A DNA stretch of 64,000 nucleotides from Candidatus Woesearchaeota archaeon (GCA_018302785.1 JAGVZF010000012.1:1859-65858), one strand, 5' to 3'; shown: positions 21,454 to 24,865, counted from the stretch's first letter. Program-made: numbers and translations. The notes: generated by a model from the sequence alone, not told the origin.

Positions 21454-21927
21454 ATGAGTTATATTTTTGCTTTAAGAACAACCGCGAATAGAGAAGATCA
21501 AGTAATGGATTTTGTTTATAGTCACGCGCAGAAGAAAAATTTAAAGATATTAAGTTTAATTAGACCACATGATTTAAGAGGTTATATTTTTATAGAAGCA
21601 GAAAGTAAAGTTGATGCAGAAAGTGCATTTAAAGGAGTTCCTTATGCAAGAGGATTATTACCAAAACCATTAGATTTTAAAGAAATTGAGCATATGTTTG
21701 AACAGGCAAAAACTAATGTTAATATTCAGAAAAATGATATTGTTGAAATTATTTCAGGACCTTTTAAAAGAGAAAAAGCAAAAATTACAAGAATAGACAT
21801 GGCAAAAGAAGAAGTTGTTGTTGAGTTATTGGAAGCTGCTGTTCCAATTCCAATTACTGTAAGTTTAGATTCTGTAAAAGTAATTAGAAGAGAAGGAGAA
21901 ACTGAAGAAGAAGAAAAACCCGAATAA
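21454..21927 (+). CDS. spt5: Transcription elongation factor Spt5 (NusG)
   Basis: NGN domain start IFALRTTANREDQV, KOW motif DIVEIISGPFKREKAKITRID. Confidence 0.9.
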   Translation: MSYIFALRTTANREDQVMDFVYSHAQKKNLKILSLIRPHDLRGYIFIEAESKVDAESAFKGVPYARGLLPKPLDFKEIEHMFEQAKTNVNIQKNDIVEIISGPFKREKAKITRIDMAKEEVVVELLEAAVPIPITVSLDSVKVIRREGETEEEEKPE

Positions 21928-22971
21928 GAAGTAATTTAAGGTTTTTTCCAAATTCTTTCTTAATTTATATGTACTAGCCCATTTTGCATAAGCTTGCCAA
22001 CCTTGAAAGCTTTCAGTTATTTTATCTTTAGTTATAATTCCTTCTTTGTATGATCTAATTTTATTTTTCATTTTCCTTACATTTCTATTTCTTAACAATT
22101 TATAATAGTAAAAATTCCTGAAACCAATAAAATCTATTCCTCTGCTTAAAGGAATTATTCTTGATTTGTCTTTGTGCAATTCTATTTTAAGATTATCTAT
22201 TAAAAATCCACTTATATATCCTTTCCATTTTAATAATTGATCATATGATTCATGTAAAATTACAAAATCATCTACATATCTAATATAATATTTTATTCTT
22301 AAATTGTGTTTAATAAAATAGTCTAGTTCATTTAAATAAATATTAGCAAAGAATTGAGATGTTAAATTACCTAAGGGCATTCCTTTACCTTTTATTTTAG
22401 TGTTAAAATTAATTAATATTTGTTCTGTTAACCAAATTACTTTTTCGTCTTTAACCTTTCTCTTAATTATTTTTAATAGAATTTGCTGATCAACTGTTTC
22501 AAAGTAATGTTTAATATCTGCTTTTAGACAATAACTTATAATAGAGTTGTTATTATACTTGTTTATTGTTAAAGTTCCATTTTTTGTTACTTTTCTTAAA
22601 AACTTATAGAACCTTCTAATCGCAAATAAGTTTCCTTTATTTTTTCTGTTTGCACAAGAATCATATATAAATCTTTTTTCATAGATTGGTTCTAGAACAT
22701 TAAATAAAGCATGATGAACAATTCTATCTCTAAATTCTGATTTACTTATTTTTCTTGTTTTAGGATCTCTTAAAATAAAAGTTTTTAGTGGCTCTGGCGT
22801 ATATGTACATGTCTCCAATTCATGTTTTAATTTTAATATATTATTAAGCAAATCTTTTTCAAATTCAATTACATAATTTCTAGTTGATTTATGTTTTCTT
22901 GCTTTTTTATAAGCTAAAAAAATATTTTCAAAAGAAGTTAATTCAGAATAGAAATTTCTATAAGTCTTCAT
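21865..22971 (-). CDS. DGR-type reverse transcriptase
   Basis: RT motifs RDRIVHHAL, PLGNLTSQFFANIYLNELD (the SQ motif typical of DGR RTs) and YIRYVDDFVIL (YxDD). No maturase or endonuclease extension. The likely start is ATG at 22971 (MKTYRNFY). The track TTG start at 23079 simply reads through the TR. Confidence 0.9.
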   Translation of the reverse strand: MKTYRNFYSELTSFENIFLAYKKARKHKSTRNYVIEFEKDLLNNILKLKHELETCTYTPEPLKTFILRDPKTRKISKSEFRDRIVHHALFNVLEPIYEKRFIYDSCANRKNKGNLFAIRRFYKFLRKVTKNGTLTINKYNNNSIISYCLKADIKHYFETVDQQILLKIIKRKVKDEKVIWLTEQILINFNTKIKGKGMPLGNLTSQFFANIYLNELDYFIKHNLRIKYYIRYVDDFVILHESYDQLLKWKGYISGFLIDNLKIELHKDKSRIIPLSRGIDFIGFRNFYYYKLLRNRNVRKMKNKIRSYKEGIITKDKITESFQGWQAYAKWASTYKLRKNLEKTLNYFLFGFFFFFSFSFSSNYFYRI

Positions 22972-22998: not shown

Positions 22999-23082
22999 TA
23001 TTCCGAGGAACTGAGCATTGTTGTCAAGGTTGTTGTTACCATTAAGGCCATTGTTGTAGTTGTTGCCAAGATAAAGCAAACG
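22999..23082 (-). repeat. DGR template repeat (TR), 84 nt, AAY-codon rich
   Basis: Minus strand: cgt ttg ctt tat ctt ggc aac aac tac aac aat ggc ctt aat ggt aac aac aac ctt gac aac aat gct cag ttc ctc gga ata. Aligns to VR 23430-23510. Confidence 0.9.
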
Positions 23083-23294
23083 CCCAATTGTAGCCTATTA
23101 ATTAAAATTACACCACCACTTCATATTTCAATTTTTAATTTACTTAATGTTGTGATTGAATTTTATGGCATTTAGACTTATTAGAGTCCATGCACTATTA
23201 ATAGGCGTGTAGCCCAGACATAACTTAAGTATCATATTTAGTCTACTTAAGTAATGCCAAGACTAAAATAAGAAAAAGAAATTGTTTAAAAACT

Positions 23295-24131
23295 TTACTT
23301 AGAAAGTTTATGTACTCTTTCTGTAAAGTCTCTTAATGAAGCTCTTCCTAAGTAATCTTCTGCTATTTTCAAAACTTGATCTATACTTGGCTTTGGAATT
23401 TTTGAACTAGCTCCTTCGGCGCTATCACGTACCCCGAGGAACCGAGCACCGTAGCCAAGGTAGTTGAGACCACCAAGGCCATCGTCGTAGTCGCCAAGAT
23501 ACAGCAAACGTGCTAAAGGTTCATCCCTTAAATCATCAGTGTACCAAACTCCTATCCTTGGACCGAAAACTGTTTTGTGTTTTTCTAAATATCTTTGTGC
23601 TCTTTCTTCTCCACCTAAAAATGGAATAACTTGTGGATGTTCTAGAGCATCACTTACATTGATTAAACCGCTTGGTGAATTTCTGAATTTATCATAATCC
23701 ACTAAAAATACTAATTTATTTCCCGATTCATCAGTTAATCCTTCTAAATCAACTAATCTTTGGAATTCTCCTTGTGGAATTCTACCAGCATTATTTACTA
23801 ATCCTTCACTAATTGCTTGTTCTATATTTTCTGGAGTGGATAAGTAATTATTAGTGTGAGCATAAACAACAACTGGATTTCCTTGTTTAGTTCTACCAGT
23901 AGCTCTAATACTAGGAGTTGTAAACCAAGTTTGCCATACTCTTGAATCTCCATCAGCTTCAATTCTAGCATCTGCTAATTGAGGCATGTAAACTGGAGTA
24001 TAACCTTCTTTTTGTAAAGATTTTAATGCTTCTGGAACACTATTATTATAGAATTCTTTTCCTTCTAGATTTGTAATTATTCTTTTCGGTACTAAAATCT
24101 TACTTTGTTCTTGAATTTGTGTATTTGTCAT
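23295..24131 (-). CDS. DGR variable (target) protein, 278 aa, VR at codons 208-234
   Basis: Contains the VR (RLLYLGDYDDGLGGLNYLGYGARFLGV). I see no N-terminal signal peptide or TM segment. The N-terminal about 200 aa are unrecognised. Confidence 0.85.
   Translation of the reverse strand: MTNTQIQEQSKILVPKRIITNLEGKEFYNNSVPEALKSLQKEGYTPVYMPQLADARIEADGDSRVWQTWFTTPSIRATGRTKQGNPVVVYAHTNNYLSTPENIEQAISEGLVNNAGRIPQGEFQRLVDLEGLTDESGNKLVFLVDYDKFRNSPSGLINVSDALEHPQVIPFLGGEERAQRYLEKHKTVFGPRIGVWYTDDLRDEPLARLLYLGDYDDGLGGLNYLGYGARFLGVRDSAEGASSKIPKPSIDQVLKIAEDYLGRASLRDFTERVHKLSK
23430..23510 (-). repeat. DGR variable repeat (VR), 81 nt
   Basis: Minus strand: cgt ttg ctg tat ctt ggc gac tac gac gat ggc ctt ggt ggt ctc aac tac ctt ggc tac ggt gct cgg ttc ctc ggg gta. 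There are 15 substitutions relative to TR, all at TR adenines. In addition there is one T-to-G change at codon 3 and a one-codon gap. Confidence 0.9.
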
Positions 24132-24151: not shown

Positions 24152-24167
24152 AATATATAAATCTTTC
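24152..24167 (-). promoter_or_regulatory. BRE/TATA-like promoter of the DGR target gene (gaaagatttatatatt on the minus strand)
   Basis: Matches the window-wide promoter motif. Centred about 26 nt upstream of the ATG at 24131, which implies a leaderless or near-leaderless mRNA. Confidence 0.45.
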
Positions 24168-24252: not shown

Positions 24253-24462
24253 AAGGATGTAGAAGAACAAACATTTAAAGAATTTAAAGCTGAATCTGTA
24301 ATAGAAGGATTGAAAATAGGTAAGGCTTTAACTATAGCAATGAAATTTTGGTTAGAACAAAAAAGTAAAAAACCTAAAGTTAGTTTTATTGAATTAAAGC
24401 CAAAAAACTGGGGTAATGGAACAGAAAAAACTAGTGAAGAGATAGATAAAATTTTATATTAA
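24253..24462 (+). pseudogene. Possible degraded or short VapB-like antitoxin upstream of the PIN gene
   Basis: Open frame ends 2 nt before the PIN ATG: KDVEEQTFKEFKAESVIEGLKIGKALTIAMKFWLEQKSKK... It has no start codon at its 5' end (in-frame stop at 24250-24252). The first in-frame TTG is at 24310 and the first ATG at 24340. Confidence 0.3.
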
Positions 24463-24463
24463 A

Positions 24464-24865
24464 ATGGTCATTATTATAGACGCTAGTGTTTTTGTTGCCT
24501 ATGCAAATAAGGATGATATTCATAATAAGAGAGCACAAGAAATAACTAGATTAATTATTGCTGGAAGATACGGAAGAGTATTAACCACAGATTATATTTT
24601 TGACGAAACTATTAGTGTTGTTTTAAGAAAATCAAACAAAATAAATGCAGTAGAATTAGGAAATTATATTCTAAATTCTGAGATTCATGTTGCTAAAATA
24701 GACTCTTCTATTTTTGAAGAATCGTGGAATTTATTTAAAAAATTTGAAAATTTTAGTTTTACTGATTGTACAACACTGGCTATTATGAAGACCTTAGGTA
24801 TAAAAGATATTGCAACTTTTGATAAGGAATTCAGAAAGTTAGAATGGATTAATGTTGTTGGATAA
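24464..24865 (+). CDS. vapC: PIN-domain ribonuclease (VapC-like toxin)
   Basis: IIIDASVFVAY (first acidic residue), TDYIFDET, FSFTDCTTLAIM and ATFDKEF motifs. Confidence 0.8.
   Translation: MVIIIDASVFVAYANKDDIHNKRAQEITRLIIAGRYGRVLTTDYIFDETISVVLRKSNKINAVELGNYILNSEIHVAKIDSSIFEESWNLFKKFENFSFTDCTTLAIMKTLGIKDIATFDKEFRKLEWINVVG

Follow-up and report, generated by a model that had tools for sequence, protein, structure and literature searches.

A leaderless DGR target with a short internal variable region in a groundwater archaeon is very probably a member of the AvpA family

What kind of protein does an archaeal DGR diversify when its target has no visible export signal and places a short variable region (VR) inside the protein rather than at its end? 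The question was raised by a first-pass annotation of a 64-kb stretch of archaeal DNA (64,000 nucleotides, here called the window), which read one gene as a DGR target of unusual architecture and speculated about a cytoplasmic role. We conclude that the gene very probably encodes an AvpA-family variable protein, diversified by a chromosomal DGR of a Nanoarchaeia (DPANN) archaeon. The assignment draws on homology, the fold, the anatomy of the cassette, the adenine-specific differences between the VR and its template repeat (TR) and the lack of export signals.

The cassette has the order target, RT-16 RNA, TR and reverse transcriptase (RT), and its features, listed in the direction of transcription, are as follows:

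24154..24161, minus strand: TATA-like box TTTATATA, ending 23 nt upstream of the target ATG; a candidate read from the sequence
23295..24131, minus strand: gene for the AvpA-like DGR variable (target) protein, 278 aa, with a predicted CLec-fold domain at ~21-236 and a C-terminal tail
23430..23510, minus strand: VR, codons 208-234 (27 codons, 81 nt)
23430-23441, minus strand: IMH-like invariant VR end TTCCTCGGGGTA, the last 12 nt, encoding FLGV
23409..23423, minus strand: GC-rich inverted repeat AGCGCC-GAA-GGAGCT just 3' of the VR, encoding the linker SAEGA
23298..23429, minus strand: C-terminal extension, codons 235-278 (44 residues)
23085..23262, minus strand: RT-16 RNA motif (Rfam RF03019), 3' of the target stop codon and 5' of the TR
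22999..23082, minus strand: TR, 84 nt, adenine-rich, with 10 AAY codon equivalents
21865..22971, minus strand: DGR RT, 368 aa (Pfam RVT_1, E=1.4e-14)

The TR/VR repeat and the adjoining RT uphold the identification of the gene as a DGR target, and the annotated protein length, the short and internal position of the VR and the 44 residues following it were all confirmed. Sixteen TR adenines are substituted in the VR, and the only difference at another base is a T-to-G change at the 5' edge. A degenerate pattern allowing any base at the TR adenines matched nothing in the 64 kb except the VR and TR sites; with no matches expected in shuffled sequences, the repeat cannot be ascribed to chance. Besides the 10 AAY codons, the TR holds four other A-containing codons, and its theoretical repertoire comprises ~1.5e14 protein variants, among which stop codons are impossible. 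The VR ends in GGGGTA and the TR in GGAATA, a pairing shared by all 17 cassettes compared. Compared with the TR, the VR lacks one codon (3 nt): the gap lies next to AAC, and it is an AAC-equivalent codon that is missing. We rejected this length difference as an anomaly: indels beside AAC are found in ~7% of DGRs and are known to arise as a side effect of reverse transcription by these elements (Wu et al. 2018), and in-frame TR/VR length differences occur in 9 of the 17 cassettes of the AvpA-type lineage.

Rfam has to date listed RT-16 as an orphan motif; in the AvpA-type DGR lineage, this RNA is a constant component. In cmscan, the window copy matched the full model with 101.3 bits (E=1.4e-16), the gathering score being 50. 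The TR ends ~27 nt ahead of the RT start codon, and the RT ORF shows the motifs LGNLTSQ and YVDD and is 52-60% identical to the RTs located directly 3' of AvpA-like genes at 17 other loci, the AvpA locus included. No further VR or target paralogue was found within the 64-kb window, and no ORF between the target and the RT; an Avd-like gene was seen neither in the cassette nor next to it. The small ORFs next to the cassette (50 aa in the window and 77 aa in other contigs), located upstream of a PIN-domain gene, had no Pfam match, and a conserved small neighbour that might serve as an Avd candidate was lacking across the 61 loci of the family survey described below.

The absence of an export signal could be an artifact of a misplaced start codon. 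The translated ORF begins with MTNTQIQEQSK, and an in-frame stop lies six codons 5' of its ATG, with none of the start codons ATG, GTG and TTG between the two; the ORF therefore cannot be extended to any hidden leader, and revision of the start codon reveals no signal peptide. The spacing of TTTATATA to the ATG suggests that the mRNA itself may be leaderless, which would fit an archaeal leaderless transcript. For the target and its relatives alike, export signals were called by judging hydropathy and not with a trained predictor. On this basis, the claim that the protein has neither a hydrophobic leader nor a TM segment holds: across the whole protein, the highest Kyte–Doolittle mean over 19 residues is 0.60, with the usual TM threshold at ~1.6, and a hydrophobic core is missing from the N-terminus. 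The same hydropathy scan gave no sign of a Sec, Tat, lipoprotein (lipobox) or pilin-type signal, a TM segment or a C-terminal anchor. Hydrophobic N-terminal stretches are nevertheless found in 14 of the 69 nonoverlapping ORFs in the window, most of them resembling classic signals or TM segments (e.g., MKKRVFLLLIFIFIVINF..., and MKKSIFLVFLISIILFVSAC with a lipobox-like Cys), and a SecE gene is placed 1.5 kb from the target. Given these ordinary signals on other ORFs and the nearby SecE, it is meaningful for this organism that the target has none.

The first-pass annotation had considered the first ~200 residues an unrecognised, separate N-terminal domain. This part of the reading did not survive comparison with known structures. 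A phmmer search against the PDB aligned residues 21-276 of the target with residues 5-253 of AvpA (5ioo_A, E=1.8e-80), and the global identity to the AvpA ORF was 54.8% over 252 columns. The AvpA gene itself was located in Nanoarchaeota archaeon SCGC AAA011-G17 (locus L061), where translation of the VR and tail gives a match to the PDB chain. An AlphaFold2 model built from 68 homologues had a mean pLDDT of 90.9 and a pTM of 0.79, and Foldseek placed it on 5ioo_A with E=1.4e-28, a target-normalised TM score of 0.95 and an rmsd of 1.4 Å over 215 columns, the sole PDB match at E<=0.001. By this alignment and the predicted model, residues ~21-236 are a single CLec-fold domain of the AvpA subclass. 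The structure prediction and Foldseek search that had been proposed as a check against Mtd, TvpA and AvpA thus retrieved the AvpA-type CLec fold, which is marked by beta1/beta5 pairing, two helices and inserts 2, 3 and 4; neither Mtd nor TvpA was retrieved from the target model. The published comparison between AvpA and Mtd/TvpA gives only an rmsd of 3.4-4.1 Å and a Z of about 2.5 (Handa 2016, PMC5006420).

The sequence motifs lead to the same assignment. The AvpA crystal structure shows a single CLec-fold domain at residues 8-209 and a VR of 27 residues, about half the length of the VRs of Mtd and TvpA, positioned near but not at the C-terminus; the motifs defining the family are GxxVVVYAH, HPxxxPFxG and RFxGV, the last forming strand beta5 and being encoded by the IMH (Handa 2016, PMC5006420). 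The target contains all three, as G84NPVVVYAH92, H165PQVIPFLG173 and R230FLGV234, and G79, H92, H165, Q167 and F171 are invariant in the 68-sequence alignment. The segment ARFLGVR, which had seemed faintly similar to a GFR motif in a fold that could not be assigned by eye, is in fact the RFxGV of the AvpA family. A Pfam search of the target returned no family; the reason is that Pfam has no AvpA model and not that the protein is novel, and for the same reason the target could not be recognised by eye. The architecture is accordingly neither unusual nor new: the target is a straightforward AvpA homologue, and the layout was published in 2016 (PMC5006420).

The correspondence with AvpA (PDB 5IOO; Handa et al. 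2016; Paul et al. 2015) extends from the CLec fold, the three motifs and the lack of a leader peptide to the short internal VR, the 10 AAY codons in the TR, a tail of ~45 residues that holds a GC hairpin, and the order of target, RT-16 RNA, TR and RT, the two RTs being 60% identical. The target differs from AvpA in having an N-terminal extension of 16 residues (MTNTQIQEQSKILVPK...), predicted to add a short beta-strand, and insertions of six (EGLTDE, ~129-134) and three residues (~107-109); in addition, its VR is one codon shorter, its hairpin has one mismatch, and its host, a low-GC (~28%) groundwater Nanoarchaeia, belongs to another lineage. Table 3 of Handa 2016 (PMC5006420) lists 19 AvpA-like homologues under internal ids, the best with 45% global identity to AvpA; the window protein, at ~50-55%, can be set against these by identity but not by name.

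The tail is another feature shared with AvpA, whose 46 residues after the VR are predicted to form two helices and are invisible in the crystal, and whose tail coding sequence contains a hairpin/cruciform (Handa 2016, PMC5006420). In the AlphaFold2 model, the target tail consists of a linker followed by two predicted helices at 250-258 and 263-277, with pLDDT falling below 50 at residues 240-244 and reaching ~94 for the helices. Within the family, P248 is nearly invariant and I/L250, D/E251, L276 and Y277 are conserved, a pattern that suggests a function beyond that of carrying a DNA hairpin. The inverted repeat of the window has one central mismatch (G·A), whereas homologous loci have perfect hairpins of the type GCGCC-GAA-GGCGC at the equivalent place; that of AvpA is AGTGCC-GAA-GGCACT.

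[quoted passage not shown] Like the target, they combine this fold with adenine-templated residues, an IMH-encoded final beta-strand and a GC hairpin after the VR; unlike it, their VRs are about twice as long and extend to the extreme C-terminus, and the hairpin is noncoding. Mtd forms the trimeric tip of a phage tail fibre and TvpA is a lipoprotein. The Bordetella cassette includes Avd, and its RNA primer element (RT-10/Sp) follows the TR on the 3' side, whereas no Avd-like gene was seen in or beside the window cassette and RT-16 lies 5' of the TR. DGR targets that are surface-bound or secreted, such as the lipoproteins LdtA and TvpA, have a signal peptide, a lipobox or a TM anchor, all missing from the target by hydropathy. 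A closer parallel in this respect is provided by the cytoplasmic CLec targets fused to STAND, MoxR or AAA ATPases in multicellular bacteria and CPR (Vallota-Eastman 2020; Doré 2024; Paul 2017), which like the target have a leaderless CLec variable domain. The window protein differs from them in standing alone: neither its own chain nor the neighbouring genes supply an NTPase, kinase or effector partner, although one member of the AvpA family (P0108) resembles them in carrying an AAA+ ATPase.

To place the locus within its family, we searched 1.84 billion representative proteins with a profile and retained matches at E<=0.001. This resulted in 638 AvpA-like clusters, 232 of them below 1e-30 and with a median length of 261 aa. 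Nearly all relatives are single-domain proteins of 220-300 aa, those with a taxonomic name come from Nanoarchaeota, Woesearchaeota or Pacearchaeota, and the 100 closest database relatives contain no Pfam domain. A hydrophobic leader at the N-terminus is missing from all of ~235 relatives, and the three sequences with a 19-residue mean of at least 1.6 reach it internally; by this measure, the leaderless state is common to the AvpA-like family. In species-representative genomes, a homologous RT is encoded directly 3' and on the same strand in 17 of 61 loci, and no other gene family recurs near the AvpA-like genes in the 61 loci. The RT-16 RNA occupies the same position in 16 of the 17 RT-linked loci, including the AvpA locus. 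Among 33 RT-less copies, 25 contain the GGGGTA IMH and 18 a perfect GC hairpin, which makes these copies probable remote targets of DGRs located at other sites of their genomes. The AvpA-like proteins of groundwater DPANN and Woesearchaeota form one family with the window protein, and most are either adjacent to an RT and a TR or RT-less with an IMH and a hairpin.

The variation within the family follows the template. In the family alignment, entropy is low at the VR scaffold positions (R208, 0.22; L210, 0.11; L219, 0.33; F231, 0.43) and rises to 2.6-3.3 bits at the VR positions opposite TR AAY codons. In P0002, a relative with 82% identity, the VR differs exactly at the AAY and other A-containing positions of the window TR. 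Two proteins of the family have additional segments. One of 925 aa (P0108), encoded in an ordinary archaeal chromosomal context, joins two AvpA-like domains to an AAA+ ATPase of the ClpX/Cdc48 type, and when it was used as the query it was itself alone among the matches listed. Another (P0200) has an HTH_38-like segment with 26.6 bits, for a cut-off of 27.

From these features we infer a scheme for ligand binding and homing. The ~14 adenine-templated codons of the 27-codon VR would build a variable ligand-binding surface, closed by the last five VR residues, RFLGV, as an invariant, IMH-encoded beta-strand. By analogy with characterised DGRs, the RT would copy a TR-containing RNA into cDNA, misincorporating bases opposite adenines, and the mutagenised cDNA would replace the VR, with the GGGGTA IMH and the GC hairpin in the tail coding sequence directing its homing. 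The 44-residue tail may then be understood as a flexible linker imposed by the hairpin and followed by two conserved helices. As it has no export signal or TM segment, the protein would be made in soluble form.

Whether the cassette of the window still operates is a separate matter. If it were decaying or currently silent, the VR would be an effectively frozen allele, and several observations fit such a state: the missing 3 nt of the VR, the central G·A mismatch in a hairpin that is perfect in homologues, the recurrence of the same VR in 23 contigs from at least six assemblies and, more generally, in every public contig with this allele, and five near-identical cluster variants of the protein that differ at residues 9-119 only and never in the VR. 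The RT ORF, however, is undamaged and retains both of its motifs, the TR and the RT-16 RNA are likewise intact, and the length difference is of the known AAC-adjacent kind (Wu 2018) also seen in the 9 lineage cassettes. The repeated VR is a weaker witness than it appears, as an exact-protein look-up returns identical VRs only and the assemblies, judging from their sample names, seem to be re-assemblies of one groundwater site or aquifer, so that identical consensus VRs are not independent. For these reasons, identical VRs were rejected as proof of inactivity, and we regard a silent cassette as unlikely.

Related sequences show how alleles at this locus vary. A strain contig (L070) has 30 SNPs, all within codons 9-119 and none in the other ~2 kb covering the target, RT-16, TR and RT. 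Another allele from the same sample (P0106/L069) is identical as far as codon 137 but diverges beyond it and has a VR that is of full length and different; its contig ceases to follow the cassette within RT-16. These patterns, together with that of the five cluster variants, point to recombination or a tangled assembly of co-occurring strains and not to the action of the DGR. The VRs of the related alleles P0002, P0004 and P0106 all differ from that of the window.

Many DGRs are phage-borne, and the clade 5F RTs of CPR/DPANN are phylogenetically close to the viral clade 6 RTs (Doré 2024, PMC10907252); the cassette could on these grounds derive from a virus or mobile element, with the target as its receptor-binding protein. 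The surroundings speak strongly against this. The cassette is flanked by archaeal housekeeping genes for Spt5, SecE, FtsZ, ribosomal protein L11, SepF and prefoldin, with PIN/L11 on one side and Spt5/SecE/FtsZ on the other, and this synteny is conserved across public contigs. A relative of the FtsZ with at least 90% identity is labelled Candidatus Nanoarchaeia, and the GC content of the window is ~28%. No relative of the target was found in IMG/VR, and the BFVD search gave no significant structural match. From its gene context we consider the cassette chromosomal and not viral; a viral origin of the locus, essentially refuted by the housekeeping flanks and the two empty searches, is highly improbable.

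Where an AvpA-family protein acts is a question of greater consequence. The first-pass annotation had regarded a leaderless, cytoplasmic DGR target as functionally novel, but there are precedents: the targets of archaeal clade-5 DGRs typically have no TM segments or other domains (Roux et al. 2021, PMC8144416), and cytoplasmic CLec DGR targets have been predicted in bacteria (Doré et al. 2024, PMC10907252). The former authors added that the genuine nonmembrane status of such targets "remains to be established" (PMC8144416). For the protein studied here, we infer localisation from its sequence and that of its family, and the two outcomes, that it stays in the cytoplasm or that it leaves the cell by an unconventional exit and acts on a host, appear roughly equally likely.

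A truly cytoplasmic hypervariable receptor, serving intracellular recognition or defence with a novel N-terminal module, would agree with the lack of an export signal, by hydropathy, in the target and ~235 relatives and with the cytoplasmic targets predicted in bacteria (PMC10907252), as well as with the AvpA-like pair fused to an AAA+ ATPase on an archaeal chromosome and the HTH_38-like segment just below the cut-off. The novel module is refuted, however, by the single AvpA CLec domain; both fusions are singletons, and the neighbourhood comparison proposed for finding a functional partner turned up no conserved effector or signalling gene across 61 loci. We did not use the AAA+ fusion as a basis for the cytoplasmic argument, its failure to recur among the matches listed being a weak negative. 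In the form stated, this reading is doubtful. Nonclassical export or display, in which the protein would mediate how the ultra-small DPANN cell and its host attach to or recognise each other, is a somewhat better though still tentative proposition. The AvpA literature favours such a role, an involvement in symbiont–host interaction having been proposed in Handa 2016 (PMC5006420) and in Paul 2017, as cited by Doré 2024 (PMC10907252). It fits the prevalence of surface proteins among cellular DGR targets (PMC8144416), and the conserved two-helix tail (P248, L/I250, E/D251, L276, Y277) could be a docking module. On the other hand, the target has no Sec, Tat, lipobox or pilin signal, TM segment or C-terminal anchor, though its neighbours have classic signals, and no secretion-system gene is linked to the 61 loci.

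A broader conjecture, possible in our judgement but unlikely, is that AvpA-family proteins are intracellular hypervariable binders, for instance adaptors for changing viral or host-derived molecules, or are delivered into the host through the symbiont–host contact. Should this be true, in either the intracellular or the host-delivered form, they would constitute a functional class new to archaeal DGR targets. The single AvpA–AvpA–AAA+ (ClpX-like) fusion is a hint of the adaptor idea.

The window protein is a further member of a known family, and both its architecture and the idea of a leaderless target had already been published. The locus contributes one more AvpA-type DGR cassette in a good state of preservation, from the genome of a groundwater Nanoarchaeia, which by itself matters little. 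The wider question in the literature is where leaderless variable proteins act, and what they bind, in organisms presumed to live attached to other cells; this locus, whose cassette is complete and compact and whose chromosomal surroundings are conserved, could be a test case for it.

RT-16 (RF03019), an orphan Rfam motif of the class "RT-associated" RNA (Weinberg 2017), was found within the cassette of the AvpA-like target gene:

23085–23262, minus strand: RT-16 RNA, 101 bits, after the stop codon of the target and ahead of the template repeat (TR)

The same arrangement was observed in 16 of the 17 AvpA-like cassettes linked to a reverse transcriptase (RT) gene, AvpA's own locus included (besides the window, loci L007, L008, L013, L019, L020, L025, L027, L033, L034, L044, L049, L054, L059, L061, L065 and L066). 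The RNA lies 5' of the TR in these cassettes, whereas the structured primer element (RT-10/Sp) of the Bordetella phage lies 3' of it; from the TR end to the RT start there are only ~20–45 nt. Our literature search found no paper connecting RT-16 to archaeal DGRs. At its 3' end, the RT gene shares 63 nt (21865–21927) with a convergent Spt5/NusG-like gene (21454–21927, plus strand).

Within the variable part, the variable region (VR) and the TR differed in length, in frame, in 9 of the 17 cassettes of the window's lineage: the window itself (23430–23510 vs. 22999–23082), L013, L019, L020, L027, L033, L034, L049 and L059. Six of these differences were –3 nt, with +3, +9 and +18 nt seen once each, and the sites fall within or beside AAC-rich stretches of the TR. 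Such indels have been reported in ~7% of DGRs overall, with RT slippage suggested as the cause (Wu 2018), and their frequency in this lineage is far higher.

Downstream of the VR, the target coding sequence contains a GC-rich inverted repeat:

23409–23423, minus strand: post-VR hairpin, AGCGCC-GAA-GGAGCT, with a central G·A mismatch

In AvpA and most homologues the stem is perfect, 5–7 bp long, and closed by a GAA, GGA or AGA loop, whereas the copy in the window is mismatched. The "AEG" peptide conserved in the linker of the family is merely the translation of this hairpin.

Within the target, strain-level variation was clustered in the N-terminal half (codons 9–119, 23775–24107). The strain contig L070 differed from the window by 30 SNPs in these codons and by none over the next ~2 kb. 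A related allele (P0106, locus L069) was identical over codons 1–137 and diverged beyond. In neither case were the changes adenine-specific, and the pattern suggests allele recombination or chimeric assembly. Upstream of the target start lie two further genes:

24310–24462: small ORF
24464–24865: PIN-domain (VapC-like) gene, downstream of the small ORF

At ~24251, in the stretch separating the small ORF from the start of the target, six public contigs that are otherwise 99.8–100% identical carry 22 nt missing from the window; the ORF is therefore 50 aa long in the window and 77 aa in those contigs.

Among the relatives, one archaeal protein of 925 aa (P0108; L068, 6001–8778) combines a tandem pair of AvpA-like domains with a ClpX/Cdc48-type AAA+ ATPase, which comes after them, and has a ClpB_D2-small-like end. 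No RT was found near its gene and no further copy of the architecture in the databases searched, leaving it a singleton.

Several DPANN genomes encode multiple AvpA-like paralogues:

L047, 2968–5702: three tandem paralogues
L011, L028, L029, L035 and L052: five loci in one MAG, CAYMIM01
L010 and L032: loci in genome DATDVR01

Most paralogues have no adjacent RT, yet they have kept both the GGGGTA-type end of the VR (IMH) and the hairpin, which suggests multi-target DGRs working in trans.
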